Positions 27,141 to 53,571 of a stretch of DNA of 64,000 bases are shown here, piece after piece. The translations under genes were made by a program, and so were the position numbers. Location: NCBI RefSeq assembly GCF_030013205.1, contig NZ_CP122648.1. One strand, given 5' to 3'. The DNA comes from Escherichia coli. Its GTDB lineage: Bacteria > Pseudomonadota > Gammaproteobacteria > Enterobacterales > Enterobacteriaceae. A model generated the notes under the pieces. The model did no database searches, was not told the DNA's origin, and saw only the letters and a list, made by a program, of their open reading frames with translations. The stretch's first letter is position 1, and each line of letters begins with the position of its first letter.

Positions 27141-28727
27141 TTAATGCTCGCGGGTCTGGTGGAACTGAACGTCCGGATAACGTTCCTGTGCCAGGCGCAG
27201 GTTAACCATGCTGGTAGCGATGTAAGCGAGATTATCGCCGCCATCAAGCGCCAGTTGGCTTTCGTTCTTACGCTTGAACTCTTCAAATTTCTTCGCGTCC
27301 GCACATTCTACCCACCGGGCGGTGGCAACGTTGACTGATTCATATACTGCTTCAACGTTGTATTCGCTCTTCAGGCGCGATACCACTACATCAAACTGCA
27401 GCACACCAACCGCACCAACGATCAGGTCGTTGTTGGAGATCGGACGGAACACCTGCACCGCGCCCTCTTCGGAAAGCTGTACCAGCCCTTTGAGCAGCTG
27501 TTTTTGCTTCAGCGGATCTTTCAGGCGGATACGACGGAACAGTTCTGGTGCGAAGTTCGGAATACCGGTGAACTTCATCATCTCACCCTGGGTAAAGGTG
27601 TCGCCGATCTGAATGGTGCCGTGGTTGTGCAGGCCGAGGATATCGCCAGGATACGCTTCTTCAACGTGCGAACGGTCACCCGCCATAAAGGTCAGCGCGT
27701 CGGAGATAACCACATCTTTCGCGGTGCGCACCTGGCGCAGCTTCATGCCTTTTTCATATTTACCGGATACCACGCGCATAAACGCCACGCGGTCGCGGTG
27801 TTTCGGGTCCATGTTGGCCTGAATTTTAAATACGAAGCCGGTAAATTTGTCTTCGCTCGCTTGTACGGTACGGGTATCAGTCTGACGCGGCATCGGCGCA
27901 GGTGCCCACTCCACCAGGCCATCCAACATATGATCGACGCCGAAGTTACCCAGCGCAGTACCGAAGAATACCGGAGTGATTTCGCCCGCAAGGAACAATT
28001 CTTTGTCGAACTCGTTAGACGCGCCTTTCACCAGTTCCAGTTCGTCACGTAGCTGCTGTGCCAGATCTTCACCAACCGCAGCGTCGAGATCCGGGTTATT
28101 CAGCCCTTTAACAATACGGACTTCCTGAATCGTGTGGCCTTTACCGCTCTGATAGAGATAGGTTTCGTCTTTATAAAGGTGGTAAACGCCTTTAAACAGC
28201 TTGCCGCAGCCAATCGGCCAGGTGATCGGTGCGCAGCCGATTTTCAGCTCGTTCTCAACTTCATCGAGCAGTTCCATCGGGTCGCGGATATCACGGTCAA
28301 GTTTGTTCATAAAGGTGAGGATCGGCGTGTCGCGCAGACGGGTAACTTCCATCAGCTTACGGGTACGATCTTCAACACCTTTTGCGGCGTCGATAACCAT
28401 CAGGCAGCAGTCCACCGCCGTCAGGGTACGATAGGTATCTTCCGAGAAGTCTTCGTGCCCCGGGGTGTCGAGCAGGTTAACCAGGCAATCGTGATACGGA
28501 AACTGCATCACAGACGTAGTAATGGAGATCCCACGCTGCTTTTCCATCTCCATCCAGTCCGACTTAGCGTGCTGGTTGGAACCACGGCCTTTTACTGTAC
28601 CGGCGGTCTGAATGGCCTGTCCGAACAGCAGCACCTTCTCGGTGATGGTAGTCTTACCGGCGTCCGGGTGAGAAATAATTGCAAAGGTTCTTCTTTTCGC
28701 TACCTCTGCGGCCAAAAGGCTTGTCAT
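27141..28727 (-). CDS. prfC: Peptide chain release factor 3, with prophage-supplied first codons
   Basis: From residue ~8 onward ([33 protein letters not shown]..) it matches RF3 to the C-terminal ..VQFHQTREH. The N-terminus here is MTSLLAAE, whereas the orphan native 5' end at 53497-53571 encodes MTLSPYLQ. Confidence 0.9.
28666..28679. repeat. att core copy 1 (prophage/prfC junction)
   Basis: GGGTGAGAAATAAT (minus strand ATTATTTCTCACCC, codons I-I-S-H-P of prfC) is repeated exactly at 53507-53520. Confidence 0.7.
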
Positions 28728-28747
28728 AATTGTTGTCTCTTTAATTA

Positions 28748-28862
28748 TGTACAATCATATGTACAAAGAAAAATTCATGCCGCTGATTGTACATTTTGGA
28801 GGTATCAGAGCATAGCAGAACATGATCAGTAGGTGTATTTGTAGCCAAAGAACATTTGTACA
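28748..28862. repeat. Cluster of four TGTACA-core sites (candidate integrase arm-type sites, prfC-proximal end)
   Basis: TGTACA at 28748, 28760, 28788 and 28857, in the contexts tATGTACAAt, tATGTACAAa, aTTGTACATt and tTTGTACATg. A mirror cluster lies at 53286-53342. Confidence 0.45.
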
Positions 28863-28887
28863 TGCAGCAATCTTTGTTCTATTGACA

Positions 28888-28931
28888 CTGTTTATTCATA
28901 CAGTTAAAAATAACACTGTATACAAACACAG
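28888..28931. promoter_or_regulatory. Two tandem LexA (SOS) boxes in the dinI-like promoter
   Basis: CTGTTTATTCATACAG (28888-28903) and CTGTATACAAACACAG (28916-28931) both fit CTGT-N8-ACAG. TTGACA at 28882-28887 precedes box 1, and the ATG of the DinI-like gene is at 28947. Confidence 0.75.
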
Positions 28932-28946
28932 TGTAGAGGGATTTTT

Positions 28947-29195
28947 ATGCGTATTGAGATCTGCATAGCTAAAGAGAAAATGACTAAAATGCCAAGCGGT
29001 GCTGTGGATGCGTTAAAGGAAGAATTAACTCGACGCATCAGTAAGCGTTATGACGATGTAGAGGTGATCGTAAAAGCCACCAGCAACGATGGCCTTTCTG
29101 TTACGCGCACCGCCGATAAAGATTCAGCTAAAACTTTTGTTCAGGAAACTCTGAAAGATACCTGGGAGTCTGCTGACGAGTGGTTTGTTCATTAA
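28947..29195 (+). CDS. DinI-like protein (prophage-encoded)
   Basis: 82 aa, [59 protein letters not shown], parallels E. coli DinI (MRIEVTIAK..AIDAL..ELSRRI....ILQETWESADDWF). Confidence 0.85.
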
Positions 29196-29226: not shown

Positions 29227-29256
29227 TTGACTTTAAGATCATTAAATTGTAATAAT
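29227..29256 (+). promoter_or_regulatory. Candidate sigma70 promoter of the RT cassette
   Basis: TTGACT (29227-29232), a 17-nt spacer, then TAATAA preceded by TG. This predicts a start near 29262. Sequence match only. Confidence 0.35.
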
Positions 29257-29260: not shown

Positions 29261-29397
29261 AAGGATGGGGCAGGTTTTTCCTCTTGTGCATGCAAGGGCG
29301 GCTCTGATAATGAACAGTAATATTTTACTGTTGAGCTTATGCTCACTGATCCTGCCGGGCAGGATGTTCAATGATTCCAATATATCCTGCCCCTTCC
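29261..29397 (+). ncRNA. Candidate structured leader / ncRNA upstream of the SLATT-RT pair
   Basis: Closing helix GGATGGGGCAGG (29263-74) with CCTGCCCCTTCC (29386-97). Internal hairpins at 29313-29332 (8 bp, perfect), 29333-29344 and 29349-29365 (17-nt palindrome). The 8-mer ATCCTGCC recurs. Confidence 0.35.
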
Positions 29398-29417
29398 GCT
29401 TTTAAAAAGGATCTTTT

Positions 29418-29969
29418 ATGCATGACAATATTTGGTTTACATATAAAGCCCGTATCCAAGCGCACCATCGACTAGAATGGCTTGAAAAGCACTCTCAATT
29501 TATCCTCGTTTGGTATGCTATATTGAGTGCGGTACTTTCAATTGTAACGTTGCGATTTCCAAAAGTTCTAGGAGATAACACAGATATCGTTGCGGCAATA
29601 CTTTCGGTGGCCCTACTGGGTATTTCGCTGATCGTATCTAACCTAGATTTTCGTGGTCGAGCAATAGCCATGAGAAGGAATTATATTGCACTACAGCGAC
29701 TCTATTTTGACATTACCACCAGTCAACAGTTAACTCTTGAACAGAAAGAAAAATATTTTAATTTGCTCAATGAGGTTGAGAATCACCGTGACATAGATGA
29801 TAAAATTTCAAGGGTAACTCAAGTTGGACTTACGACGAGGATCCCCACACAAAAAGAAAAAATAATTGTTATTTTATGGATATTACTTCGAATATTTACT
29901 ACTGCCGCCCTTTATATACTCCCATTAATATATCTTTGGATTGACTATGACTGCAAGCAGAATTTTTAA
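29418..29969 (+). CDS. SLATT-like 2TM (+1 C-terminal TM) membrane effector candidate
   Basis: 183 aa. An N-terminal amphipathic helix (IWFTYKARIQAHHRLEWLEK) is followed by TM hairpin FILVWYAILSAVLSIVTL / IVAAILSVALLGISLIVSNL, a helical middle and a C-terminal TM IIVILWILLRIFTTAALYILPLIYLWI. RBS AAGGA upstream. The 3' end overlaps the RT start. Confidence 0.6.
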   Translation: MHDNIWFTYKARIQAHHRLEWLEKHSQFILVWYAILSAVLSIVTLRFPKVLGDNTDIVAAILSVALLGISLIVSNLDFRGRAIAMRRNYIALQRLYFDITTSQQLTLEQKEKYFNLLNEVENHRDIDDKISRVTQVGLTTRIPTQKEKIIVILWILLRIFTTAALYILPLIYLWIDYDCKQNF

Positions 29970-31317
29970 AAAGTCATTCTCGAAAAAAAACCTTCTAAAA
30001 GTATACACTGAAAAAATCAAAGAATCAGGAGCGATTGGCATAGATCGGATTCGCCCATCAAAACTTGATTTGACAATAAAAAATGAGATCGCTTTCATTT
30101 TTGAAAAGGTTAACTCTGGCAATTACAAATTTACAGCATATAAAGAAAAATTAATATCTAAAGGCGCTAACTCTACACCCAGACAGATTTCCATACCAAC
30201 TGCTAGGGACAGAATTACTCTTAGAGCTCTCTGTGAATGCCTTACGGAAATATATCCTAACTCCAGATTAAAACTACCACATACAGTAATTGACTCATTG
30301 AAAGAAGCATTAAACAGCAGTCTTTATGCTGAATATGCAAAAATAGATCTTAAAAGTTTCTATCCTTCAATTGAACATAAATTGATAATTAATGCAATAA
30401 AAAATAAAATTAGAAAAAAAGAAATTAGACAGTTAATAACATCATCATTAATCGTGCCTACTGTAAGTGGAACAACAGGAAGCAAAGGTATCCCGAATAA
30501 TACCAGAGGAGTACCTCAGGGATTAGCGATATCAAACATTTTAGCTGAAATATCACTATCTAATTTTGATGATGAAATCAATAAAATGCATGACATATGG
30601 TACATGCGATACGTTGATGACATTCTTATTTTAACACCAAAATATCAAGCAACAAAAATAGCTTCTCATATCATTGATAAGCTTCAATCATTAAATTTAA
30701 ACCCACATCCATTAAATGAAGAGAACTCAAAATCCAAAGTAGGCAGCTTGGATGAAAGTTTTAACTTTTTGGGATACCACATAGAAAATCGAGAATTATT
30801 GATAAAACATGAGAGCATTCTTAGATTTGAGTCATCTTTAGCAAGGATTTTTACTGCATACAGGCACGCTCTACTACAAGCTAAAAGTAAGCGTGATAAA
30901 GAACGAGCTGTTGCATATTGTCAGTGGAAACTAAATCTCAGAATTACGGGATGTGTGTTTGAAGGTAAACGATTGGGATGGGTATCGTACTTCTCACAAA
31001 TAACCTCAACAGCTCAACTTCGCTCTGTTAATCATACTATCAATAATCTTATCCGCCGATTCGGCCTTTCATCAGAAATAAAACCAAAGTCTTTGATTAA
31101 AACTTTCTATGAACTCCGCAGAGGTAGAGCGGAGACTTTTAAATACATACCTAACTTTGATAATTTACATATATCTCAGAAACGAGAACTTGTTTCTATG
31201 TGGATAGGTAAAGAGAAGGAAAAAAAACTTAGCAATAGTGAAATAGAGAGGAAGTTTAAATTTAAAATTGCGAAATCAGTAAAAGAGCTTGAAGAGGATA
31301 TCTCAGGAATATCATAG
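29947..31317 (+). CDS. Reverse transcriptase (non-retron, group-II-intron-like / UG-DRT-like)
   Basis: Motifs RQISIPTARDR, AKIDLKSFYPSI, RGVPQGLAISNILAEI, YMRYVDDILIL (YVDD at 30610-30621), FNFLGYHI and a maturase-like LGWVSYFSQ. ATG at 29947 (TTG at 29941 is also possible). Confidence 0.9.
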   Translation: MTASRIFKKSFSKKNLLKVYTEKIKESGAIGIDRIRPSKLDLTIKNEIAFIFEKVNSGNYKFTAYKEKLISKGANSTPRQISIPTARDRITLRALCECLTEIYPNSRLKLPHTVIDSLKEALNSSLYAEYAKIDLKSFYPSIEHKLIINAIKNKIRKKEIRQLITSSLIVPTVSGTTGSKGIPNNTRGVPQGLAISNILAEISLSNFDDEINKMHDIWYMRYVDDILILTPKYQATKIASHIIDKLQSLNLNPHPLNEENSKSKVGSLDESFNFLGYHIENRELLIKHESILRFESSLARIFTAYRHALLQAKSKRDKERAVAYCQWKLNLRITGCVFEGKRLGWVSYFSQITSTAQLRSVNHTINNLIRRFGLSSEIKPKSLIKTFYELRRGRAETFKYIPNFDNLHISQKRELVSMWIGKEKEKKLSNSEIERKFKFKIAKSVKELEEDISGIS

Positions 31318-31424: not shown

Positions 31425-31727
31425 TTAACGGATCAACAGCCAGATCAGCAGACACGCCACCACCGGCACAGCAAAATCCATCAGGCTTGCCACATCCCAC
31501 GCGCGCGGATCAAAACCGCCCCACCACGGCATATTCATTCGCTTGCCATGCCCGAACATTTCAATCCAGCGATATTCTGCCTGGGTGTGTTCACGCGCAA
31601 TGAAGAACGTACAACCGGCTATCGCCCCGTAAGCCCAGTTCCCGGTAAAAAGACCAATCAGTAGCTGCGCAGCCACAGCACAAAGCGCATGAAGGAAAGG
31701 TGTTATATCCATTTTCATCCTACCCAA
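31425..31727 (-). CDS. Prophage small membrane protein, function unknown
   Basis: 100-aa ORF with hydrophobic segments (FLHALCAVAAQLLIGLF, AIAGCTFFIA, FAVPVVACLLIWLLI). Last gene of the tail-fibre block. Confidence 0.5.
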   Translation of the reverse strand: MGRMKMDITPFLHALCAVAAQLLIGLFTGNWAYGAIAGCTFFIAREHTQAEYRWIEMFGHGKRMNMPWWGGFDPRAWDVASLMDFAVPVVACLLIWLLIR

Positions 31728-31754
31728 TAAAACGGGGCGCTCGGCCCCTTAATA

Positions 31755-32795
31755 TTATTTAGACGCAAGCGCCGCCTCAATTGCAGATAATCTTTGTCTT
31801 AATTCTGCGTTTTCTTCTTCCAGTGCTGTTATCCTGTCGTCTGACTCTCTGGCTACCTGAACAAGCAAACCCGTTACGCCTGAGTAATCGACGGTATAGT
31901 ATCTTTCTCCCTCTTCTCCATCAGACCCATTGTCCCCGCTCTTGTACTTTATTGTGCTACCAACTGATTCAGGGATTGCATTAAGTGCCTCTTGCGCAAT
32001 AACGCCAGCATAAGGCATACCATTAGACTTGAGACGGTAAGTATACCCATTCATTAATCTGATGCGCTCAGTGGCATTATCAATAACCTGAATGTTTTCT
32101 TTAAGATCTCTGTCCGACACCTGGTCGAATGATGTAGCCTTGCATGGCCCGTTTATCTCAAGCTGATAGGTTTTATCTGGGTTCCTTTGTGCATAAAACA
32201 AAAAAAGCCCGCCATCATCCCTAATTTCATAAACAACTGGACGACTGGAATTTCCCCATAATAACGTCGACACACCAGAATACGCCGTACCTTGCGTGTT
32301 TAGTGTCATGGTCGACCCGTGATTAGCATATTTGATCTGCAATGAGTCTGTATTATCAAACTTAATAAGCGCGTTACTTCCCCGCACACCATACGACATG
32401 AGACAGTTCCCCATCTTAAGGTAACCATCACTGCCTGGAAAAATTAAAGTTCCTCCGTAAAGATCACTAAAGTCCCAAAAGATACCTTTTGTCCCGTTAT
32501 GTGTGACGATCCTCGTCATTGTATCTTTAGTACCATCAATATTTTTTCTGGTATATATGTCACTATAAGCGTTTTCCGTTTCACCAGTCTTATTTGACAA
32601 ATGCAGCTTACCGCTGAATATAGTTCCAGTTGTTGGCAATGTTTTTTGATCATAGATTACATTGCAATAACCATTCCATGTTGTTTTATTGTCTACATAA
32701 TATTTTGTTGCGTAGTTTCCTTGATCGGTTTTTAATTTACTAACATCCGATTTTAGCGTTTTGATGTCATCAGGAATTACTGTTTTTGTAACCAT
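31755..32795 (-). CDS. Tail fibre/spike protein with C-terminal intramolecular chaperone (peptidase S74-type) domain
   Basis: C-terminal ..SDRDLKENIQVIDNATERIRLMNGYTYRLKSNG..AGVIAQEALNAIPESV..YYTVDYSGVTGLLVQVARE.. followed by a coiled coil (ENAELRQRLSAIEAALASK). This is typical of the self-cleaving chaperone domain. Confidence 0.75.
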   Translation of the reverse strand: MVTKTVIPDDIKTLKSDVSKLKTDQGNYATKYYVDNKTTWNGYCNVIYDQKTLPTTGTIFSGKLHLSNKTGETENAYSDIYTRKNIDGTKDTMTRIVTHNGTKGIFWDFSDLYGGTLIFPGSDGYLKMGNCLMSYGVRGSNALIKFDNTDSLQIKYANHGSTMTLNTQGTAYSGVSTLLWGNSSRPVVYEIRDDGGLFLFYAQRNPDKTYQLEINGPCKATSFDQVSDRDLKENIQVIDNATERIRLMNGYTYRLKSNGMPYAGVIAQEALNAIPESVGSTIKYKSGDNGSDGEEGERYYTVDYSGVTGLLVQVARESDDRITALEEENAELRQRLSAIEAALASK

Positions 32796-32807
32796 TGTCT
32801 TACTCCA

Positions 32808-33077
32808 TTAAGCCCATGTCCTTACATGCTGATCTGTCGTAATGAAAGGCATTAAAGAAGATATGTTTTTACTGCTATCAACAATCCTCATGTTTACGAA
32901 AAAACCACCGCGATCAATGCCTGTACATCTTTCGTTTTCTGGCTCCTCGTAATCAATAATGCAGCCAATAACATCAACAAGAACCCCATTTTCTTCTTCA
33001 AGACTGAACAGGCCACTGTCATATACAATTGCGTTAAACTGTTCTCTGTTATCGAATCGTAATGTTATATCCCGCAT
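32808..33077 (-). CDS. Hypothetical tail-fibre-module protein
   Basis: 89-aa ORF, start-stop coupled to the upstream gene (overlap at 33077). No recognisable motif. Confidence 0.4.
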   Translation of the reverse strand: MRDITLRFDNREQFNAIVYDSGLFSLEEENGVLVDVIGCIIDYEEPENERCTGIDRGGFFVNMRIVDSSKNISSLMPFITTDQHVRTWA

Positions 33078-34366
33078 TATACGTATTCCTTAAGCTGCGT
33101 ATCTGACAATGCTCTGTTCCAGAAACGGAGGTTTTTTATATGACCATTAAGGTGTCGTAATCCTGTCGTCGTTTGCCCCCCGATTCGAATCACGGCTGCT
33201 TCACGAATATATTTCCATACTGTTTTGGTTTCAGTGCTTATATGCTTATTTGCAAATGAGCATGTCATGCCGTCAGCCTTAACCCTGAATCCCATAACGA
33301 GATCTCTTACTCCGCATGACTCATATACACGCCGGTTAGCCCCGCCTATATCGCAATACGAATAACCATCCTGACTGATAGTTCCAGAAGAACCAAACCC
33401 CATAATAAATGGGCCTCCGGACTGGTGATTTTCTGAATCAATGACACGCGGTGCAGCATTATGAGAAATAAACCAGTTTTTATGGACTTCCACCATGAAC
33501 GTAAAAGGCATGGTATACATATTTTTCATCAGCGGAAACTTACATAAATCTGATGCACGAGTCGCTGGCTCTGTTGTCGTTATGATAAAGGAAGTTGCAC
33601 AAGCACCATACTCGAATTGCGGGGTGGTTACTTCTATCCAGTCACCTGTTGCAAAAGCCCCCACTGCTCTGTCGGCTGCAATTTGCAGCTGCGTACCAAC
33701 CATTCCCCATTCTGGCAGACATTTCAGTGTTGCCTGAAAATATATCCATCCACTACCAGGGTCGATTTCAAAGTTTGCTGTTAATAGCTGGGCATTACCA
33801 CCCGTAATTTGTAGTTCATGAGTCTGTAATGACAAATAGGCGTCACAAAGGAAAGTGTATCCTTCCGAGTTATACCGTTCAAAACGGATACGTGCGCGAA
33901 CATTGAGATCACTTCTTACCCTGAACGACGCGGTAACATACGGACCTTTACTGTACTGATCATCGCCAGTCACATCTATGCCTTTATTACCAGCAACTGT
34001 GCATATATTTCTCCCTGTTGTCGTTCCTGCTATCTCACTTCCTACTGTGAAACGTCCATATTTAAACTCAAATTCATCTGTTGATGATGTTACAGATATA
34101 CCACCGCTTTTATTCCACGCATCAGGATTAAAACTATTTACGAACATGTTTGTTCGCTGATTCTCTATCAGCAAACCATATTTTTCAAAACGAGGAACGT
34201 TATTCCCTGCCACGGTAATATGCCCGGACTTATCAATATACGTTGCAGATGAAGCCCGGCTAAATTGGCATATGCCATTAACAGGCATTGTTATTTCATC
34301 ACTGCCGATGGTTATTGTTTTATAGCCCGGGGCATACCCTGTTATCGCTTCCAGAGAATCATTCAA
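33077..34366 (-). CDS. Tail-fibre-associated / receptor-binding-like protein (frame stays open upstream to 34453)
   Basis: 429 aa from a TTG. The in-frame upstream sequence reads ..NAARIAEDAADPASVPPLPDIWLPL.., so the true N-terminus is probably the frameshifted fragment at 34407-34562. The C-terminal ..LRFWNRALSDTQLKEYV resembles lectin/LamG-type ends. Confidence 0.6.
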   Translation of the reverse strand: MNDSLEAITGYAPGYKTITIGSDEITMPVNGICQFSRASSATYIDKSGHITVAGNNVPRFEKYGLLIENQRTNMFVNSFNPDAWNKSGGISVTSSTDEFEFKYGRFTVGSEIAGTTTGRNICTVAGNKGIDVTGDDQYSKGPYVTASFRVRSDLNVRARIRFERYNSEGYTFLCDAYLSLQTHELQITGGNAQLLTANFEIDPGSGWIYFQATLKCLPEWGMVGTQLQIAADRAVGAFATGDWIEVTTPQFEYGACATSFIITTTEPATRASDLCKFPLMKNMYTMPFTFMVEVHKNWFISHNAAPRVIDSENHQSGGPFIMGFGSSGTISQDGYSYCDIGGANRRVYESCGVRDLVMGFRVKADGMTCSFANKHISTETKTVWKYIREAAVIRIGGQTTTGLRHLNGHIKNLRFWNRALSDTQLKEYV

Positions 34367-34406
34367 GGGTAGCCAGATATCAGGAAGCGGAGGGACAGAA
34401 GCAGGA

Positions 34407-34562
34407 TCAGCGGCATCTTCTGCAATCCGGGCTGCATTCAGAGGCCACCGTGTTCACCAGTACCGTGGTGCTGTTACGCTTTGCCTTCAGTTGAATAGTG
34501 CAGTTCTGTATTGGTTTTCCCGCACCATCTTTCAGCACACCTGAGATTTTTACTGCTGCCAT
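34407..34562 (-). pseudogene. Side-tail-fibre N-terminal fragment (lambda Stf-like), out of frame with the downstream body
   Basis: ATG at 34562 gives MAAVKISGVLKDGAGKPIQNCTIQLKAKRNSTTVLVNTVASE, very close to the lambda Stf N-terminus MAVKISGVLKDGTGKPVQNCTIQLKARRNSTTVVVNTV... It then reads CSPDCRRCR and stops. Confidence 0.65.
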
Positions 34563-34573: not shown

Positions 34574-34600
34574 AAAAAAGCCCGCCTGAACCGGCGGGCT
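34574..34600 (-). terminator. Rho-independent terminator after lom
   Basis: GCCCGCC..GGCGGGC stem followed on the minus strand by TTTTTT. Confidence 0.65.
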
Positions 34601-43542: not shown

Positions 43543-43559
43543 CAACTTTCTCCACAAAA

Positions 43560-45589: not shown

Positions 45590-46137
45590 GCGTTAGTTTC
45601 TCCACAGACACAAAACGCCACGACGCCCGGAGCTGCACACTCGCGGGCGTCACTCTTTTCTGGAGCGCAGAAAATTTTGTAGACCAGTGCCGCATGCTCC
45701 TGGAGCTTCGAAATTGACAGATACAATTCATCATTAATTGCTGTCTGCTCGTGTGGCTCCACTACCCCATCTTCGATTGCCGAACGAATCTGCTTTGAGT
45801 AACTCCCGATCTGTTCGATGACTTCCAGCAGGCGCTGGTTTATATCTGCGTTCTCTACTTCCTCAATTTCAGGAAGCGATACAAACACCCCACCAGCAGA
45901 CTGTGCGACAGCATCCGCAATGTAGTGAGTGCCAGCAGCACGCTGTAAAATCATTGCCCATCCCAGCGGGAAAATCTGATCGCCATCTGCACGAAGGCGG
46001 TTGAATAAAGCGTTCTCTGTAACATCCAGCCACTCAGCAGCTTCAGCGTAACCCCCCGGCAACGCCGCGATAGTTTTTCTGACAGCTTTCACGTACCACT
46101 CAGGCTGTTTTTCCACTTTCCAGTGATGATTACCCAC
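45586..46137 (-). CDS. Early regulatory protein, CII/CP76-like (e14 YmfL-like)
   Basis: 183 aa, directly downstream of and overlapping the cro-like gene. The family call is from memory of e14-type immunity regions only. Confidence 0.45.
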   Translation of the reverse strand: MGNHHWKVEKQPEWYVKAVRKTIAALPGGYAEAAEWLDVTENALFNRLRADGDQIFPLGWAMILQRAAGTHYIADAVAQSAGGVFVSLPEIEEVENADINQRLLEVIEQIGSYSKQIRSAIEDGVVEPHEQTAINDELYLSISKLQEHAALVYKIFCAPEKSDARECAAPGVVAFCVCGETNA

Positions 46138-46390
46138 GGCTTACCTCCTGTTCCTGTGGTTTAAACCCATTCTGGTTTTGGCTAGATTGAAAACGTGCCG
46201 GATAAAGAATCTGCATTTCGCTGATTTCACCCTTAAAAAAATTGGCCAGACGTTCTGCAAGATCGATAGATGGAATTTGTTCCAGTCTTTCAATACGACT
46301 CAGCGTCGCTGGATTGACCTGAACGCCAGCAGCAACATGCTGCAAAGTAAATCCGTGCGCCTTACGCACATTCCGTAATGGTGATTGCAT
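46130..46390 (-). CDS. Cro-like XRE-family HTH repressor
   Basis: 86 aa with ..RKAHGFTLQHVAAGVQVNPATLSRIERLEQIPSIDLAERLANFF... Divergent from cI across a 97-bp operator region. Confidence 0.7.
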   Translation of the reverse strand: MQSPLRNVRKAHGFTLQHVAAGVQVNPATLSRIERLEQIPSIDLAERLANFFKGEISEMQILYPARFQSSQNQNGFKPQEQEVSRG

Positions 46391-46404
46391 ATGACCTCCA
46401 CATA

Positions 46405-46467
46405 TTGCGTGATGAGCATATTATTTCACGCAAATATTTTGCGCAAGTTGATTTGCTTAACGCGCAA
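46405..46467. promoter_or_regulatory. OR-type operator region (TTGC-N7-GCAA sites)
   Basis: TTGCTTAACGCGCAA (46453-46467), TTGCGTGATGAGCAT (46405-46419) and the palindrome TTGCGCAA (46439-46446) lie between the divergent cro-like and cI genes. Confidence 0.45.
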
Positions 46468-46487
46468 TAAAGAAATGTAATAAACGC

Positions 46488-47180
46488 ATGAACATAGGAA
46501 ACCGAGTCAGACAACTTCGCCAGGCGAAGAACATGAAAATCGCCGATCTCGCTGAAGCAATAGGAGTGGATGCGGCGAATATCTCACGCCTGGAAACAGG
46601 TAAGCAGAAACAATTCACTGAACAAGCCCTGAGTAATATTGCCAAGAGCTTAGGTGTTGATATTGCTGATCTCTTTACCTCAGACTTCAAAAGTAATACT
46701 GTATGTAAAAACAGTATTAGTGAGGATGTTGCGCAGGTGAAGGATGTATTCCGTATTGAAATGCTGGATGTCAGTGCCAGTGCGGGAAATGGCCTTATCC
46801 AGGGCGGTGATGTCATTGATGTGATTCATGCCATTGAATACAGAACTGATAATGCTGTATCGATGTTTGGTGGACGGCCAGCCAATCACATTAAAGTTAT
46901 CAACGTTCGTGGGGACAGTATGTGTCCAACCATTGAGCCAGGAGATCTCATCTTCGTTGATGTCAGTATCAATCAGTTTGATGGAGATGGTATCTATGTA
47001 TTTGGTTTTGATGATAAAATTTATGTCAAACGACTGCAAATGATACCTGACAAACTACTGGTGATTTCTGATAACCAGATTTACCGTGAATGGGGAATTA
47101 CCAGCGAAAATGAACACCGGTTTATGGTCTTTGGAAAGGTCTTAATCAGCCAGTCACAAACCCTTAAGCGACACAATTAA
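46488..47180 (+). CDS. CI-type prophage repressor (HTH + S24 LexA-like autopeptidase)
   Basis: 230 aa with an N-terminal HTH (NRVRQLRQAKNMKIADLAEAIGVDAANISRLETGKQ), an Ala-Gly cleavage context (SASAGNG), and the catalytic GDSMCPTI Ser and VKRL Lys. Confidence 0.9.
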   Translation: MNIGNRVRQLRQAKNMKIADLAEAIGVDAANISRLETGKQKQFTEQALSNIAKSLGVDIADLFTSDFKSNTVCKNSISEDVAQVKDVFRIEMLDVSASAGNGLIQGGDVIDVIHAIEYRTDNAVSMFGGRPANHIKVINVRGDSMCPTIEPGDLIFVDVSINQFDGDGIYVFGFDDKIYVKRLQMIPDKLLVISDNQIYREWGITSENEHRFMVFGKVLISQSQTLKRHN

Positions 47181-47221: not shown

Positions 47222-47259
47222 CATCACCCTTTAAATTGCATATCTCGCAACAAAAACAC

Positions 47260-47274
47260 TTGCATAATGCGCAA
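47260..47274. promoter_or_regulatory. OL-type operator overlapping a pL-like promoter
   Basis: TTGCATAATGCGCAA is 13/15 identical to the OR site TTGCTTAACGCGCAA. It overlaps a CATAAT -10-like hexamer, with TTGCAT at 47235. Confidence 0.4.
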
Positions 47275-47699
47275 CTTCATTTTATCTTTCTTTCCAGACA
47301 AACAAACAAGGTACTAACAAAATTTGGTTGTAACACGGCGTATGGCACATGCGTCGTTAGCGGTCTGGGGACGTTAAAGGGGACAATCCACTCCTTGCTC
47401 GGGCAAACAAACCAGGTAGCCGGAATGTGCAAGTCAATGATGATGCTGATAAGACGCCTAACCAGCGTGGCGATTCGGTTTGACGCCTGGGAAGAGACCA
47501 GGGTGCAACGATGAGGGCATTTATGGAGCCGCGACAAAGTGTGGTGCCGTAACTGGCTAAGTGCTCTCAGCGTTGTGGTAATCCGCGAAATGGCGCGGCG
47601 GTAAGTATGGCGGGGTTACTCTTTCCCCGTTGAGGACACCGGATTGTCAGGTTGACCATACGCCTGAGTGACAACCCCACCACAACAGCCACTGCTTTG

Positions 47700-47745
47700 G
47701 CGGTACCAGTTTGTACCCTTGCTTCCGGCTGGTACCGCTCTTTTT
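47700..47745 (+). terminator. Rho-independent terminator inside the early-left leader (tL-like)
   Basis: GCGGTACCAG (47700-09) pairs with CTGGTACCGC (47729-38), a 10-bp perfect stem, followed by TC TTTTT. Confidence 0.6.
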
Positions 47746-47882
47746 ACAAAACAGAGAAGAGCATCACCGGACGACGAGCTCATAACCCAATCCATCCGGG
47801 CGGCTGCCACCGCAGGTGTTCTTCTCCGTTTTGTGGAGAAACCAACCGACCTTGCAGGGTCGATATGATGAGGAGCAGCAAA

Positions 47883-48245
47883 ATGGCTAGCGAACGCAGT
47901 ACTGATGTGCAGGCATTTATTGGGGAGCTGGACGGCGGCGTATTTGAAACCAAAATCGGCGCAGTTCTCAGTGAAGTCGCTTCCGGTGTGATGAACACGA
48001 AAACCAAAGGTAAGGTCTCGCTCAACCTGGAAATCGAACCGTTTGATGAGAATCGTGTGAAAATCAAACACAAACTCTCGTATGTTCGCCCGACTAACCG
48101 CGGGAAAATTTCCGAAGAAGACACCACCGAAACGCCGATGTATGTCAATCGCGGTGGTCGCCTGACTATTCTGCAGGAAGACCAGGGACAATTACTGACT
48201 CTTGCTGGTGAACCTGACGGAAAACTCCGCGCAGCAGGTCATTAA
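47883..48245 (+). CDS. Conserved prophage early protein (CPS-53 YfdP-like position), 120 aa
   Basis: AGGAG RBS then ATG at 47883, giving MASERSTDVQAFIGELDGGVFETKIGAVLSEVASGV... The longer track ORF (from 47652) has no RBS and runs through the terminator. Confidence 0.6.
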   Translation: MASERSTDVQAFIGELDGGVFETKIGAVLSEVASGVMNTKTKGKVSLNLEIEPFDENRVKIKHKLSYVRPTNRGKISEEDTTETPMYVNRGGRLTILQEDQGQLLTLAGEPDGKLRAAGH

Positions 48246-48310
48246 TATCGTTCTTAATTAACTGATTATTTATCTCATCACTGAATATCTTTATATAGTG
48301 AGGACTTATT

Positions 48311-49135
48311 ATGTCTCAGAACTTAGACGCAACCGCAATTAATCAAATCCATGCCCTTATTTCTGCTCAGGGTGTTAATGAAATTATCAGTAAGATTGGT
48401 GCCGATGCTGTGGCATTGCCTGAGAATTTCCGCATTCATGATCTGGAAAAATTTAATTTAAATCGCTTCCGTTTCCGTGGTGCGCTTTCCACTGCCAGCA
48501 TCGATGACTTTACCCGTTATTCTAAAGATCTTGCAGATGAAGGCACCCGCTGCTTTATCGATGCTGATAATATGCGTGCCGTCAGTGTGCTTAACCTGGG
48601 TACTATTGATGAACCAGGTCACGCAGATAACACCGCCACTCTCAAACTGAAAAAGACAGCACCGTTCTCTGCTCTGTTGTCTGTTAATGGCGAGCGTAAC
48701 TCCCAGAAATCACTGGCAGAATGGATTGAAGACTGGGCCGACTACCTTGTGGGCTTTGATGCTAATGGTGACACCATTCAGGCAACCAAAGCGGCTGCGG
48801 CAGTCCGTAAAATCACAATTGAAGCAAACCAGACCGCTGATTTTGAAGACAATGACTTCAGCGGCAAACGCTCCCTGATGGAGTCTGTCGAAGCGAAAAC
48901 CAAAGACATTATGCCAGTGGCATTTGAATTTAAATGCGTTCCGTTTGAAGGCCTGAAAGAACGTCCGTTTAAATTACGCCTCAGCATTATCACTGGCGAT
49001 CGTCCTGTACTGGTTCTGCGCATTATTCAGCTGGAAGCGATGCAGGAAGAAATGGCTAACGAATTTCGTGATCTGCTTGTTGAGAAATTCAAAGACAGCA
49101 AAGTAGAAACCTTTATTGGTACTTTCACCGCCTGA
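48311..49135 (+). CDS. DUF2303 protein (CPS-53 YfdQ-like)
   Basis: 274 aa, the same length and gene order (before the YfdR homologue) as K-12 yfdQ. Recalled, not searched. Confidence 0.7.
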
Positions 49136-49263
49136 TTTCATTACTGCAAATGCCCCTGCGGGGGCATTTATGGAAACGTAATTAACTCAATAATCACCGG
49201 ATGGTGAGAGCTTCCTTTTAGCAGAATTCAGCGCGGTGCAGCGCATATAAAGTGGAGAACTAA

Positions 49264-49800
49264 ATGTCATTTATTAAAACTTTTTCCGGGAAGCATTTTT
49301 ATTATGACAAGATAAATAAAGACGACATCGTGATTAACGATATCGCAGTTTCCCTTTCAAATATCTGTCGCTTTGCAGGACATCTTTCACACTTCTACAG
49401 TGTCGCCCAGCATGCGGTGCTTTGCAGCCAGCTGGTGCCGCAGGAATTTGCTTTTGAAGCGTTAATGCATGATGCAACAGAAGCATATTGCCAGGACATC
49501 CCAGCGCCACTGAAACGACTTCTTCCTGACTATAAACGGATGGAAGAAAAAATAGACGCCGTAATCCGTGAGAAATACGGGTTACCCCCGGTTATGAGCA
49601 CGCCTGTGAAATATCCCGATCTCATCATGCTCGCAACCGAACGCCGTGATCTCGGGCTTGATGATGGCTCTTTCTGGCCTGTACTGGAAGGTATCCCGGC
49701 AACAGAGATGTTCAAAGTTATTCCACAGTCGCCAGGCCATGCCTACGGGATGTTTATGGAACGCTTTAACGAGTTATCGGAGTTACGCAAATGCGCATGA
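49264..49800 (+). CDS. HD-domain 5'-deoxynucleotidase (YfdR-like)
   Basis: 178 aa, MSFIKTFSGKHFYYDKINKDDIVINDIAVSLSNICRFAGH..VAQHAVLCS..LMHDATEAY, matches K-12 YfdR as I recall it. H..HD motifs are present. Confidence 0.8.
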   Translation: MSFIKTFSGKHFYYDKINKDDIVINDIAVSLSNICRFAGHLSHFYSVAQHAVLCSQLVPQEFAFEALMHDATEAYCQDIPAPLKRLLPDYKRMEEKIDAVIREKYGLPPVMSTPVKYPDLIMLATERRDLGLDDGSFWPVLEGIPATEMFKVIPQSPGHAYGMFMERFNELSELRKCA

Positions 49801-49834
49801 GTCTTTCAACTGCACAACCATTGGAGGGGTAGCA

Positions 49835-50029
49835 ATGAACAACTTAATGACAACTAAACAGGTCGCCGACTTCTGTGGTGTTTCAATATCAACAGTGCTT
49901 CGCTGGAACAGCATAAACCATAGAACAGGTAAGAAATATAGACCAGACTTTCCTGATCCTGATATAAAATCCTGTCCCAATAAATGGGCATCACACAAGA
50001 TTTATAGGTTTGCGGGTATTATCGAATAA
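49835..50029 (+). CDS. AlpA/excisionase-type small HTH protein
   Basis: GGAGG RBS then ATG at 49835, giving MNNLMTTKQVADFCGVSISTVLRWNS.. (64 aa). This is the MerR-like HTH typical of Xis/AlpA. Confidence 0.65.
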   Translation: MNNLMTTKQVADFCGVSISTVLRWNSINHRTGKKYRPDFPDPDIKSCPNKWASHKIYRFAGIIE

Positions 50030-50761: not shown

Positions 50762-51781
50762 ATGACTTCTGAAAGCAACAGAATTGGGAAGATGGGTGTA
50801 AACTACATAGAAGGTGTATTGACAAGATGGGGATGGGGATATCAATCAATTTCGCAAGAAAATGATGATGGGTTTGATGGCTTAATATATATAAGATCTA
50901 AACGATTTGAGGCGAAAGATAAAGAAAACCGGAGTAAACAATCTTGGGAGTTCACTGGTGGGTTGATTCATGTACAAGTAAAAAGTGGAGATACATACAT
51001 TAGTAGTCGTAATAAAGATGAAATAAGGATCAAAATAAAAAACCTCAATGAAAAGAAGAAAATATGGTCTAGATCGTCTATTCTATGCATACTTGTATTT
51101 GTTTTTTGGGATCATAATGAAGTTGAGTATTCCTACTGGGCTGATCTTAAATCTGAATTAACTTATTGTGATAACAGTAGTACGCTAATAAAAATCCCCT
51201 TAAAAAATAGATTTATGAGATCCCAAGAGTGTAAGGGGCCTTTAAGACGACTTGCAAGGGTATCGGCCAACTATGCAGATAAGCCGCTGATAGATTTATC
51301 AAAATTTGACTCATTAAGTGGTAAGCTACCTACAAGTCTAAACAGTAACCTAAATTGTTCTTTGAAAAAGAAAGGTATTGAATTCTATCAGAAATGGCGA
51401 TTAATTGGGGCTACAAACCCTTATTTTGGTCCTGTTCTAATAAACAGAACTGGTTGGAGTCATATAACTCGACGAAATCGCCCAATAGCAAGAATTGAAG
51501 CAAGCTTTAATTTGTTACCTTTAGCAGCAAGAATTATAAATGATGTATCTACATGGCGAATGTTAACACCCGTACGACGGTATGATAATAGAAAGGATGG
51601 TTATGTTTGCTTTATAGATTTCGTTGGGTTAACAGCCAAAGTGAATTTAAAGAATCGCAACTCATCAGAAGTTATGGTTGTGTTAAAAAGGGAGAGGAGG
51701 TATAAACAGGGTGAAGACTGTTCCTCTGCGAAAACAAGATTATGGTTTTACACTGTTTATGAACCTGGAAGAGGAAAATAA
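50762..51781 (+). CDS. DUF4365-like (PD-(D/E)xK nuclease fold) N-terminal domain protein with unknown C-terminal domain
   Basis: 339 aa and AT-rich. The N-terminus ..IGKMGVNYIEGVLTRWGWGYQSISQENDDGFDGLIYI..(27 aa)..GGLIHVQVKSGDTYI fits the G..E....GW.....DDG.DG....VQVKS pattern. Confidence 0.6.
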   Translation: MTSESNRIGKMGVNYIEGVLTRWGWGYQSISQENDDGFDGLIYIRSKRFEAKDKENRSKQSWEFTGGLIHVQVKSGDTYISSRNKDEIRIKIKNLNEKKKIWSRSSILCILVFVFWDHNEVEYSYWADLKSELTYCDNSSTLIKIPLKNRFMRSQECKGPLRRLARVSANYADKPLIDLSKFDSLSGKLPTSLNSNLNCSLKKKGIEFYQKWRLIGATNPYFGPVLINRTGWSHITRRNRPIARIEASFNLLPLAARIINDVSTWRMLTPVRRYDNRKDGYVCFIDFVGLTAKVNLKNRNSSEVMVVLKRERRYKQGEDCSSAKTRLWFYTVYEPGRGK

Positions 51782-52052
51782 ATTGAGGCGGTACAATCGC
51801 GCTCAGGCTGTCCCAGACGTGATGCATAACACCACCGGTTCCAGAATTTAAGGATCTGGACCTTCAATTATGCGTGTACCGCCTTATGCAACAATACTAT
51901 AAAATTATTAAACGTCAAGATGTTCAATAAGATTTGGGCTTTCATGCCACAACACGAAAGTTCATTTTATAACGTCTAAAGCTTTCACAATGTCCGCTTT
52001 TCGCAGCTCAAAGCGGACAGTCATATTTGATTGTATTCTGGCTACTGGAGCC

Positions 52053-53276
52053 TCAGTTAGAGTCTGAGATAGTACAAGTAATGATCGATTCAACTCTCTC
52101 CCACCATGCCTGGTAGGCTTTACGCTGTTCTTCTAGATAATCGCTCTTATCATAAACTTGCCATACCCCTGGCAGTTTATGGCCGAGCATTATTTCTGCA
52201 ATATGAGGCGCAGTAAGATCAGAAAAGTTTGTTCGTGCTGTTCGCCTCAAATCATGAAGAGACCAATGAGGGAATTGATACCCCAAACGCCGCCATGCGT
52301 ACTGCATTAAATTGTAAGGCAGCGACTGCAATGATGTTCGTCCAACGGGTTCCCTGCTTCCTTCCTTAGTAAAAAGCATATCGGAACCATTGTTCATAGA
52401 GATAACGTACTTTATAAGCTCTTCAACCGGTTCAATAATGGGGCGCTTTAGCGGTTCGCCTGTTATATCCCCTGTCTTATGTCGTTCTGGCGGTACAGTC
52501 CATACCTTATTAATGAAATCAAAATCATCCACCCTAGCGGTAATTAGCTCTGAACTACGGCAGCCAAAATGCAGCAATAGTTTAATGAAGGCCCGGTATT
52601 TAGGAACCATTCGAGAACCATCGATCGCAGCATAAAGGATTTTAATTTCATCATGTGTCAGAAACCGTTTCTTCTGACCTTTACGGATATCCATATCTTT
52701 ACCCGTGATATCCGACAGCGGGCGGGTTTCAATGAGCTTTCTCTTATAGGCCCAGACATGGGCCTGCTTTGCGTTAATTAGCAATCGGTCTGCTATTGCT
52801 GGAGTCTTAGTGCTAAGAGGCTCTAAGACTTCTAACCAATCATGCAATGTAGCTGCATCGTGAGGGATACTCCCGATTTTAGAGAACAGGTGCAGCTCAA
52901 ACGAGCGGAGTATCTGTTCAGAACCTTTTTTATTTTTTACACAATATGCTTCATACCAGGCACGGATCACAGACTCTACCGTCATGGCTTCAGTAGCTTT
53001 TCGTTTTTCAGCCTGCTTGACCAATCGTGGATTACGGTTTGACTCGAGTTCACCACGAAGACGGAGAACTTCTTCTCTGGCCTCTTTTAATCCAGTTGCC
53101 GGGTAAGTTCCGATATCAAGACGCTCACCTTTCCCTGCCCATTGATAACGATATTGGAACACTACGCGACCTTTCGGTGATACTCTGACAGACAGACCAT
53201 CACGATCGGATTTAACCAAAACCTTATCACGTTCCTTTCCAACGACTGAACGCAACCACGCATCAGACAGCGCCAT
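52053..53276 (-). CDS. int: Tyrosine integrase, P4-type (DUF4102 N-terminal arm-binding domain)
   Basis: 407 aa, MALSDAWLRSVVGKERDKVLVKSDRDGLSVRVSPKGRVVFQYRYQWAGK..DIGTYPATGLKEAREE... The catalytic ..HDLRRTARTNF..MLGHK..VYDKSDY has R, HxxR and Y. Confidence 0.92.
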   Translation of the reverse strand: MALSDAWLRSVVGKERDKVLVKSDRDGLSVRVSPKGRVVFQYRYQWAGKGERLDIGTYPATGLKEAREEVLRLRGELESNRNPRLVKQAEKRKATEAMTVESVIRAWYEAYCVKNKKGSEQILRSFELHLFSKIGSIPHDAATLHDWLEVLEPLSTKTPAIADRLLINAKQAHVWAYKRKLIETRPLSDITGKDMDIRKGQKKRFLTHDEIKILYAAIDGSRMVPKYRAFIKLLLHFGCRSSELITARVDDFDFINKVWTVPPERHKTGDITGEPLKRPIIEPVEELIKYVISMNNGSDMLFTKEGSREPVGRTSLQSLPYNLMQYAWRRLGYQFPHWSLHDLRRTARTNFSDLTAPHIAEIMLGHKLPGVWQVYDKSDYLEEQRKAYQAWWERVESIITCTISDSN

Positions 53277-53285
53277 TACTCACCT

Positions 53286-53342
53286 TGTACAAATCGCAAA
53301 ACACCTCTGCTGCTTTGTACATTATGTACAAGTATATGTACA
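53286..53342. repeat. Cluster of four TGTACA-core sites (candidate arm-type sites, int-proximal end)
   Basis: TGTACA at 53286, 53316, 53325 and 53337, between the int start and the att core. Confidence 0.45.
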
Positions 53343-53496
53343 GATTTTTGATGAAAGCAAGCTGATCGATTTAAAGTTACATGAAAGAATTTTCAATTAA
53401 AGAAGCCACATAACCAAATGTATTTAAATGAGTTATATAGCTCAACCTCAATTAACTGAAAGGATTTTGAAAGAGTAAAAGAGCTTTAATTTGGGC

Positions 53497-53571
53497 TTAA
53501 TTATTGGGGTGAGAAATAATGGCAAAAGTGCGGCGCTTCGCCACCTCTTGCAAATAAGGAGACAACGTCAT
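53497..53571 (-). pseudogene. prfC: Orphaned native 5' end of prfC
   Basis: The minus strand reads ATG ACG TTG TCT CCT TAT TTG CAA GAG GTG GCG AAG CGC CGC ACT TTT GCC ATT ATT TCT CAC CCC AAT AAT TAA. This encodes [22 protein letters not shown] (the K-12 RF3 N-terminus), then NN and a stop at the junction. Confidence 0.88.
53507..53520. repeat. att core copy 2
   Basis: GGGTGAGAAATAAT is identical to 28666-28679. Similarity continues imperfectly on the prfC side. Confidence 0.7.

Follow-up and report, generated by a model that had tools for sequence, protein, structure and literature searches.

Escherichia coli K-12 carries cryptic lambdoid prophages (DLP12, Rac, Qin, and e14) that are old and widely shared. 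On prophage domestication in general, see Wang et al. 2010 and Bobay et al. 2014. We analyzed a comparable element in a 64,000-nt stretch of the E. coli chromosome (NCBI RefSeq assembly GCF_030013205.1, contig NZ_CP122648.1), which we call the window and whose numbering we use throughout. Like the K-12 elements, this is a lambdoid prophage that was inactivated by deletions and that keeps its integrase, regulators, lysis genes, and accessory genes that affect the host. Unlike them, it is at a much earlier stage: the form in the window is limited to five near-identical genomes, and sister strains are in other states of decay. Overall, we consider it likely that this is a recently and progressively decayed prophage of the mEp460/cdtI type, that its cargo consists mostly of inherited accessory genes (morons), and that the cargo is intact because the deletions are young, without any special selection.

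The closest relatives are the phages cdtI and mEp460 and a prophage of the swine strain ETEC1738. They share gene order with the window and are 93–100% identical to it at the nucleotide level across the modules in common (Nu1/terL, J, lom, dinI, KilA-N/DUF968/Q, the cII-like gene, yfdPQR, int, and the prfC att site). The window differs from them in lacking 20.7 kb (head, tail, terL, replication, and part of stf), in its phiP27-type lysis cassette and PhiR47_1-type fibre module, and in the slot between xis and int, where it has a DUF4365 gene and relatives have orf33 or AIPR.

Some of the cargo resembles described defence systems. DRT10 is an experimentally validated anti-phage family (PMC12632851). 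Its reverse transcriptase (RT) makes tandem-repeat cDNA in a protein-primed reaction, and the priming residue in Eco3DRT10 is Ser456 (PMC12632851; bioRxiv 10.64898/2026.04.29.721553). The RexA/RexB pair of phage lambda and the RexAB-type pair of P. putida (PMC11077077, PMC12894663) have a known exclusion phenotype.

A defective prophage in prfC

The element and its boundaries are as follows.

28666-53548: defective prophage remnant, 24.9 kb, between prfC and yjjG on the E. coli chromosome
27141-28727, minus strand: prfC, intact in the RefSeq annotation of the near-identical ETEC4069 genome; its 5' end is phage-supplied
28666-28707: attL, the phage-derived copy of a 42-nt att repeat, within the 5' end of prfC (direct repeat search, alignment to cdtI attP)
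53507-53548: attR, the other copy of the 42-nt repeat (same evidence)
53503-53571: displaced original 5' fragment of prfC, host-derived

prfC is a known phage attachment site, and int, xis, and the flanking att repeats are all present. The repeats are imperfect (the leading 14 nt are identical), and phage cdtI aligns to each of them at its attP region. In the gene map, which we took from the RefSeq annotation of the ETEC4069 copy, the layout follows the lambda order, with divergent cI/cro and repeated operators, a cII-like gene, a Q antiterminator, and a lysis cassette. GC content is 33–45% in the cargo blocks, as compared to 50–58% in the structural remnants and flanks. The remnant is what is left of a mEp460/cdtI-type lambdoid prophage of ~45.5 kb, and its host is a swine clone of enterotoxigenic (ETEC)/Stx2e E. 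coli.

To describe the deletions, we used two references: the near-intact prfC prophage of ETEC1738 (for terL-J and rusA) and the viable phage PhiR47_1 (for stf).

37076-37184, minus strand: terL'-'J junction (at 37076-37078) and 5' stub of terL
35297-37078, minus strand: C-terminal remnant of J (tail tip), ~594 codons, Pfam Ig_J to Ig_GpJ_C
45386-45570, minus strand: 3' stump of rusA and deletion junction (at 45564-45570, with 7-nt microhomology CGGTTAT)
34437-34562, minus strand: stf deletion junction (at 34437-34439, with 3 nt of microhomology) and 5' stub of stf
33077-34439, minus strand: 3' remnant of stf, which aligns to PhiR47_1 stf; the open reading frame (ORF) at 33077-34366 is annotated as "head spike fiber"
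31425-33077, minus strand: three intact ORFs of the tail-fibre module, of 95 aa, 346 aa (with a Peptidase_S74 chaperone domain), and 89 aa

Neither the morphogenesis nor the replication module is complete, because of deletions of 16.0, 3.8, and 0.87 kb. At the terL'-'J junction (3–4 nt of microhomology, GCA/CAC), 16,031 bp are absent relative to the ETEC1738 prophage, from the 5' part of J to terL, and the terL stub has 36 codons before it runs out of frame into an early stop. At rusA, 3,830 bp are absent relative to ETEC1738 (Rha, a replication protein, PerC, Dam, a LexA-like gene, and the 5' part of rusA), and the stump covers only positions 76–123 of the 124 in the RusA profile (the last third). 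Within the 2,358-nt stf gene of PhiR47_1, 869 bp are absent, and the stub has 41 native codons followed by a frameshift and an early stop. The three-ORF fibre module also sits downstream of stf in the viable phages PhiR47_1 and PhiR11_1.

Together, these losses (16,031 + 3,830 + 869 bp = 20.7 kb) explain the whole size difference from the near-intact relative, and all of the junctions have 3–7 nt of microhomology. Three illegitimate, microhomology-mediated deletions would thus have removed the packaging, head, and tail genes, the whole replication module, and part of stf, and the remnant should no longer be able to replicate or form particles. The scars are not assembly artefacts, as identical junctions are present in five independently assembled genomes. 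The anatomy, the deletions, and the family assignments given below are direct results of our analysis.

A preliminary description of this DNA had called the element a gutted lambdoid prophage in prfC, with scars at terL'-'J, rusA, and the tail fibre that remove replication, head, and tail functions. The att repeats, the gene order, and the three scars bear this out: each scar lies where it had been placed, and the comparison with ETEC1738 and PhiR47_1 confirms which functions were lost. That description had also proposed a comparison with intact prfC phages, in which the window proves to be the ETEC1738 prophage minus the 16,031 and 3,830 bp.

Relatives in different states of decay

Full-length matches to 28680-53506 at 99.9–100% identity are found in ETEC4069, ETEC4079, ETEC4067, ETEC1748, and K_EC180 (swine ETEC/Stx2e strains). 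Among 5,426 E. coli genomes, nine have at least 80% of the element, and just five, all from swine, have both of the large junctions (terL'-'J and rusA). In the single base-by-base comparison among the five, the differences between ETEC4069 and the window over ~32.8 kb come to one homopolymer indel and one single-nucleotide polymorphism (SNP). As the gutted form is clonal with nearly no divergence, there has been no time for decay by point mutations, and intact cargo is the default expectation.

Most of the cargo also predates the deletions. The prfC prophage of ETEC1738 (~45.4 kb) has full sets of head, tail, and replication genes along with DRT10, the Ais-like gene, tRNA-Gly, the AraC-family gene, and the DUF6731 pair. 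Across the near-intact relatives, these five items as well as dinI and lom are present; the DUF4365 gene was found in defective copies only. Because near-intact or viable relatives (ETEC1738, cdtI) have most of the cargo as well, we view these genes as inherited morons and not as acquisitions that followed the decay.

The sister clade (ETEC6333, W13-16, ETEC1701, and ETEC6334) differs by 4 SNPs and 3 homopolymer indels in the ~25.9 kb that is shared but has its own deletions: terL' (823 nt) is joined to K, rep' is joined to rusA' at 261 nt, and lom' is fused to stf, whose remnant in ETEC6333 is 544 nt longer than in the window. In this clade, J is full-length but frameshifted, an IS3 element is inserted between yfdR and the DUF4365 gene (our locus L006, 27198-28426), and an A8-to-A7 frameshift in the RT gene removes the C-terminus, including the priming Ser456. 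The lom/stf deletions of the window and ETEC6333 forms are certainly independent. At terL and rusA, the window may or may not descend from an ETEC6333-like intermediate, and either history needs two events.

ETEC4073 (99.1% identical) has a third, independent deletion pattern in which lom is wholly lost. ETEC1738 has frameshifts in dinI and in the rexA-like gene (the DUF6731 gene), and the latter gene has a frameshift in ETEC4073 as well. In ETEC4067, an IS200C element is inserted between tRNA-Gly and the holin genes (L020, 3402-3860), which might uncouple lysis from late transcription. Overall, the series includes at least eight deletion junctions, two insertions of IS elements, and several homopolymer frameshifts.

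The rusA-side breakpoint (GGATCCGGTTA|) is nearly the same in the window (45564-45570) and in ETEC4073 (L005, 16626-16634). These two deletions have distal ends that are 2 kb apart, and the rusA break of ETEC6333 is 75 nt further in. The near-shared breakpoint is either a hotspot for illegitimate recombination or a coincidence. Also, in unrelated human E. coli, three relatives were each gutted by a single large morphogenesis deletion: a dusA prophage (L007), AF44 (L008), and Ec-U11 (L017). Their junctions are portal'-'K, a loss from Nu1 through a tail assembly gene, and W-'J, and all three keep their slot cargo.

Was the cargo retained by selection?

The preliminary description had proposed that selection favored the element for its contents and not for its mobility. 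As a domesticated defence island, it would have lost its dangerous or mobility functions to selection while the cargo was preserved, and it would persist through that cargo. At least two independent lineages (window/ETEC6333 and ETEC4073) did lose replication and morphogenesis by different deletions and yet keep the Ais-like gene, tRNA-Gly, AraC, the DUF6731 pair, DUF4365, cI, and int. Slot cargo is likewise kept by other prfC and dusA relatives whose morphogenesis block is gutted, and a validated defence family (DRT10) is among the cargo.

However, selection after the decay is not measurable in a clonal form that has virtually no divergence. Nor is the cargo intact across related strains: the RT has lost Ser456, lom is truncated or lost, and the rexA-like gene and dinI are frameshifted in different relatives, and AraC is frameshifted in the window itself. 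Mobility was not specifically purged either, as int, xis, attL/attR, cos, and Nu1 are no less intact than the cargo. Finally, morphogenesis and replication make up ~60% of the ancestral genome and deletions that remove cI are lethal, which biases the surviving deletions without any selection for cargo; given also the harm done by replication-competent defective prophages, recurrent loss of these modules is expected.

The preliminary description had suggested comparing dN/dS (the ratio of nonsynonymous to synonymous substitution rates) between the cargo and the structural remnants. Relative to ETEC1738, cdtI, and ETEC4073, dN/dS was 0.06–0.30 for most of the cargo and 0–0.15 for the J and Nu1 remnants; the exception was the Ais-like gene (0.56, from 3 substitutions). 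Because the cargo and the remnants look alike and the divergence is older than the deletions, this test cannot discriminate. Given the clonal youth, the cargo damage in relatives, the similar dN/dS, and the intact excision genes, the idea that the element was retained for its cargo is plausible in general but unsupported here, and we consider domestication to be unlikely for this prophage.

Several points do weigh against our preferred explanation, recent decay with inherited cargo. Three lineages lost replication and morphogenesis while keeping the Ais-like gene, the tRNA, AraC, the DUF6731 pair, cargo between xis and int, and lysis genes, and some selection for cargo retention, or for killing replication, is possible. 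If deletions of the observed sizes are placed uniformly but barred from cI/cro, they spare all of the cargo with P ~0.047; this value of about 0.05 counts in favor of domestication, but it is borderline, post hoc, and for the window alone, and lom was hit in both of the other lineages. Predicted promoters are at the level of chance: a consensus scan found 25 promoter-like sites in the window versus 30.6 in shuffled sequence, and 12 versus 18.2. Only terminator-like sites are enriched (23 versus 13.8, and 20 versus 10.5), and the earlier claim that each module has its own promoter and terminator signals is not confirmed. The RexAB-like label that we give to the DUF6731 pair has no significant sequence match behind it. 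And all of the functional steps that we propose derive from homology or from published work on homologues.

Homopolymer tracts

Among closely related strains, one-base differences are seen in six of the 21 long homopolymer tracts. Three are the cargo frameshifts (RT, 31220-31227; AraC, 40979-40985; and rexA-like, 41796-41803) and three are intergenic (39839-39845, 39966-39973, and 53649-53655). The RT and rexA-like tracts have a common context, A8CTTA.

In principle, the A8/T8 tracts in the cargo could be contingency loci that switch genes on and off by slipped-strand mispairing, as each of the three differs by one base between close strains and each difference is a frameshift. Non-coding tracts vary as well (two A/T tracts and the G tract at 53649-53655), and four of the seven 8-nt A/T tracts of the element vary among a handful of strains, which is the pattern expected of neutral slippage or of homopolymer errors in long reads. 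Each variant is fixed per assembly. The AraC gene is present in 22 E. coli genomes, and 21 of these have the T8 ("on") form, which encodes an intact protein of 283 aa; the T7 form is found in K_EC180 alone. The T7 allele may be real, because PMC8071739 describes the K_EC180 assembly as PacBio plus Illumina. Still, neutral slippage or homopolymer sequencing error fits the variation better than programmed phase variation does, and we regard contingency loci as quite improbable. The preliminary description was correct that AraC is damaged by a homopolymer frameshift; its further suggestion that the break is potentially reversible is possible, but non-coding tracts vary as readily as coding ones.

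Even less probable, to the point of being barely credible, is that the remnant is a satellite-like element that a co-resident lambdoid phage could excise and package: int, xis, attL/attR, cos, and the small terminase are intact, a ~49.7-kb dimer would fit in a lambda-size head, and the strain family holds several other lambdoid prophages (a median of 6 matching places per genome), but the element has no replication module, primase, or capsid-redirecting genes, all of its retained genes are colinear with a near-intact phage, the gaps are plain deletions with out-of-frame junctions, and the sister strains show intermediate or different states of decay instead of a conserved satellite architecture. 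With no replication or helper-interference/packaging-redirection genes of its own and strict colinearity with the parent phage, a true satellite or phage-inducible chromosomal island is ruled out.

A complete DRT10 locus

By its sequence, the SLATT-RT pair together with an adjacent noncoding RNA (ncRNA) is a complete DRT10 (UG17) system.

29227-29256, plus strand: promoter-like site with an extended -10
~29262-29400, plus strand: DRT10 ncRNA, ~140 nt, with a basal stem and four stem-loops
29418-29969, plus strand: SLATT_5 effector of DRT10, 183 aa (PADLOC RTasSLATT, 7.9e-57; Pfam SLATT_5), with hydrophobic segments
29947-31317, plus strand: UG17/DRT10 RT, 456 aa (PADLOC RT_UG17, 5.9e-159 over 1-429/429)

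The PADLOC matches make it reasonable to list the pair as defence cargo, as the preliminary description did. The locus resembles Eco3DRT10 in its ncRNA-SLATT-RT order, in the overlap of the two genes (by 23 nt), in a 456-aa RT with YVDD that ends in ...SGIS, with Ser456 at the C-terminus, and in a ~140-nt ncRNA with a matching template. No difference from Eco3DRT10 is detectable at the sequence level, which is the level at which the window's locus is known.

The ncRNA has a predicted minimum free energy of -53.7 kcal/mol (z = -3.66). After the last stem-loop, at ~29372-29384, is a single-stranded template loop, CAAUGAUUC-CAAU, with an A-B-A' pattern (CAAU-GAUUC-CAAU), whose reverse complement is the published 9-nt cDNA repeat of Eco3DRT10, GAATCATTG (PMC12632851). 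An Rfam search (in E-value mode) found only the tRNA; Rfam has no family for such ncRNAs. The DRT10 ncRNA was therefore identified from its fold, its promoter, and the published template.

The DRT10 module is present in 187 of the 5,426 E. coli genomes and is complete each time. No close relative of the RT was found in a collection of 50,697 sequenced-phage records, so an intact-phage source for DRT10 can be demonstrated via prophages alone. Over three alleles, the ncRNA is 98% conserved, and the adjacent genes are ~94–95% identical. The alleles in ETEC1738 and in a dusA prophage have the template CAACGGUUC instead of CAAUGAUUC. Two of the few ncRNA differences between alleles lie in the template loop, which predicts a different cDNA repeat.

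A candidate RexAB-type pair

41768-42709, plus strand: DUF6731 protein, 313 aa, RexA-like by fold
42713-43156, plus strand: membrane protein (147 aa, about four hydrophobic segments) that resembles RexB in its size, its topology, and the gene order

DUF6731 is a family of ~310-aa proteins that are found mainly in Enterobacterales and are always followed by a partner of ~150 aa, including for divergent variants. A variant that is 44% identical occupies, with its partner, the same Q-proximal antisense slot in other E. coli lambdoid prophages, and another (39%) lies with its partner in a Vibrio island. Phage cdtI carries an identical pair. Between the window and cdtI (L002), identity is 100% for the DUF6731 gene and 97–99.7% for the flanking genes, which suggests a recent exchange of the cassette.

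The pair thus combines a cytoplasmic protein of RexA fold with a small multi-pass membrane partner downstream (147 aa, versus 144 aa for lambda RexB), in an arrangement that is conserved in E. coli and Vibrio. Comparing profiles with lambda RexA and RexB (using hhalign) gave weak, colinear, local matches, with E = 0.06 for RexA (at a GPxxxDL motif that both proteins have) and E = 0.02 for RexB. Searches with hmmsearch against PDB sequences and Pfam gave no match of the pair to RexA (PF15969) or RexB, and hhalign against the RexA family alignment gave no decisive support for RexA. The pair also has no match in PADLOC, is classified as unknown in PHROGs, and has no literature under DUF6731. Unlike the described RexAB pairs, it does not lie in the immunity region beside cI, where it could be cotranscribed with cI; instead, it lies on the opposite strand between Q and AraC, antisense between Q and the late genes. 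It is also not known to have an exclusion phenotype.

We therefore describe the pair as a RexAB-type candidate and not as a proven member. Tentatively, the DUF6731/four-TM (transmembrane) cassette may represent an unrecognized, divergent family of RexAB-type abortive-infection systems that is carried as a moron in antisense orientation, between Q and the late genes, and that would make this, with DRT10 and DUF4365, an island with three systems; we would put this at somewhat less than even odds.

Other cargo genes and their slots

28882-28931, plus strand: promoter-like site of dinI, TTGACA-18-AAAAAT, overlapped by two LexA boxes (28888-28903 and 28916-28931)
28947-29195, plus strand: DinI-like gene, intact, 82 aa (Pfam DinI 1-63/63, E = 1.5e-19)
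34627-35226, minus strand: lom, intact (Pfam Ail_Lom 1-199/199), followed by a strong terminator-like hairpin at 34579-34600
38111-38686, plus strand: Ais/PmrG-like lipopolysaccharide core heptose(II)-phosphate phosphatase, intact, with an N-terminal membrane anchor
40254-40328, minus strand: tRNA-Gly(UCC), intact (ARAGORN; Rfam tRNA, 65.6 bits)
40746-41596, minus strand: AraC-family regulator, YdeO/GadX-like, frameshifted in the T7 tract at 40979-40985
50762-51781, plus strand: DUF4365 protein, 339 aa, with an N-terminal PD-(D/E)XK nuclease fold and a conserved C-terminal domain of unknown function

Aside from AraC, the named cargo genes are full length relative to Pfam and NCBIfam profiles, and the tRNA is intact, which upholds the earlier view of the accessory modules. 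The Ais-like phosphatase scores 207.7 bits against NCBIfam PRK15416, above the subfamily cut-off of 142. The best NCBIfam matches of the AraC protein are YdeO (8.9e-42) and GadX, and both are under the equivalog cut-offs. Enterohaemorrhagic E. coli has prophage-encoded YdeO/GadX-like AraC regulators, namely PatE and PsrA/B. Like these, the window's gene is an AT-rich AraC-family gene on a lambdoid prophage; it differs in that its allele is rare (present in 22 of 5,426 genomes, nearly all of them from swine) and is frameshifted here.

The DUF4365 protein is a candidate PD-(D/E)XK nuclease. A DUF4365 nuclease domain is also found in the short-Argonaute system SPARDA (PMC10810196), but the protein in the window stands alone (~340 aa), its conserved C-terminal domain is unrelated, and it has neither an APAZ domain nor an Argonaute neighbor. 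PADLOC gave only weak matches for DUF4365 and none for the Ais-like, DinI, YfdQ, or YfdR proteins, and PHROGs has no entry for the DUF4365 or Ais-like protein. Sites of the form CTGT-N8-ACAG occur four times in the window versus 0.7 expected. Perfect sites of this LexA-box-like form also lie inside the coding sequences of cI (46699-46714) and the DUF4365 gene (51432-51447).

The cargo occupies four usual moron slots, which are hot spots for cargo in this family of phages. In relatives, the slot between dinI and the tail fibre holds cdtABC/cif/nleH, TIR-RT, or hypothetical genes; the slot between lysis and cos holds Bor or a Kazal-type inhibitor; the slot between Q and lysis holds DUF262+HEPN+Dcm or methyltransferases; and the slot between xis and int holds AIPR, dCTP deaminase, or cdtI orf33. 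With DRT10, a pair of RexAB-like fold, a PD-(D/E)XK domain, and defence genes in the relatives' slots, it was reasonable to describe the cargo as being for defence and conversion.

Retained phage functions

45586-47275: immunity region, with cII-like ymfL (45586-46137, minus strand), a cro-like gene (46130-46390, minus strand), and cI (46488-47180, plus strand)
~46400-46470 and 47236-47275: operators OR and OL, TTGC-N8-GCAA-type repeats flanking cI on both sides
43180-43545, 43560-44549, and 44557-45366, minus strand: Q antiterminator, DUF968/HNH gene, and KilA-N gene, all intact
38758-39795, minus strand: lysis cassette, with M15 endolysin (38758-39135), holin_3_7 (39138-39413), and holin_8 (39403-39795)
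39821-39991, minus strand: three terminator-like hairpins, a tR'-like cluster between tRNA-Gly and the holins
37184-37704, minus strand: small terminase (Nu1-type, Pfam DUF1441), intact, and cos
47883-50029, plus strand: early-left genes yfdP, yfdQ (DUF2303), yfdR (HD phosphatase), and xis
52053-53276, minus strand: tyrosine integrase, intact (Pfam Arm-DNA-bind_3, Phage_int_M, Phage_integrase)

Profile and motif searches recovered everything that the preliminary description had listed as retained: cI with its S24 domain, cro, the operators, Q, and the holin and endolysin genes. The cI protein has a helix-turn-helix and an S24 domain with the autocleavage motifs (Ala-Gly, GDSM, and VKR). The lysis cassette is phiP27-type and ~91% identical to that of phiP27. 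No spanin (Rz/Rz1) is annotated at 38686-38758, between the endolysin and the Ais-like gene, and the ETEC1738 prophage is arranged likewise. The cos site is retained at ~37703/37704, where the genome ends of mEp460 map. An unannotated but intact xis lies at 49835-50029 (64 aa, homologous to cdtI orf34). The preliminary description had missed cos and xis, as well as the DRT10 ncRNA and the two LexA boxes at the dinI promoter.

In the expected slot for an N-type antiterminator (47276-47882, ~600 nt past OL), there is no annotated gene, and the ORFs in this region at 47236-47514 (plus strand) and 47277-47537 (minus strand) have no PHROGs match. The stretch between yfdR and xis (49806-49823) lacks yfdS and a DUF551 gene, which take up ~955 bp in cdtI and ETEC1738. 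This absence is common to the window, ETEC4073, and ETEC6333 forms and resembles a clean difference in modules or else an older deletion.

Predicted behavior of the remnant

Under recent decay with inherited cargo, the cargo would be intact because the deletions are young and because deletions that reach cI would be lethal as long as the lysis genes remain. In the repressed state, cI would keep pR and pL shut through the TTGC-N8-GCAA-type operators, and the self-transcribed morons would act on the host. DRT10 would make a protein-primed (GAATCATTG)n repeat cDNA and trigger SLATT-dependent abortive infection, if the mechanism in the Eco3DRT10 literature applies. By analogy to published RexAB models, the RexA-like/RexB-like pair is probably a DNA-binding sensor linked to a membrane effector; both this model and the DRT10 mechanism are taken from the literature. 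Defence by means of a nuclease is the probable role of the DUF4365 protein, homo-immunity would come from cI itself, Lom and the Ais-like phosphatase would modify the envelope, and the DinI-like gene should be under the control of LexA. Upon SOS induction, cI should autocleave, and then either Q-dependent expression of the holins and endolysin could kill the cell, or int and xis could excise the element, which would be lost. Neither outcome should yield progeny.

Implications

This is an ordinary, young, still-decaying defective prophage with interesting passengers, and defective prophages with defence and conversion cargo are well known. The novelty of the whole island is low; only two points are mildly new, namely the DUF6731-RexA link and the natural series of decay states. 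The locus does provide a complete DRT10 system with an Eco3-type template in its native prophage setting, along with two nearby alleles that differ in the template loop only. The fold link to RexA gives a testable function for an uncharacterized two-gene cassette of E. coli lambdoid prophages and, distantly, of a Vibrio island; if the RexAB-type reading is true, it would give a function to Pfam DUF6731 and to PHROGs 7651 and 8552. And the porcine strains of ETEC and edema disease E. coli (EDEC) form a natural series, in which a near-identical prophage is found in differing states of decay, that is suited to studying the way and the order in which prophages decay.

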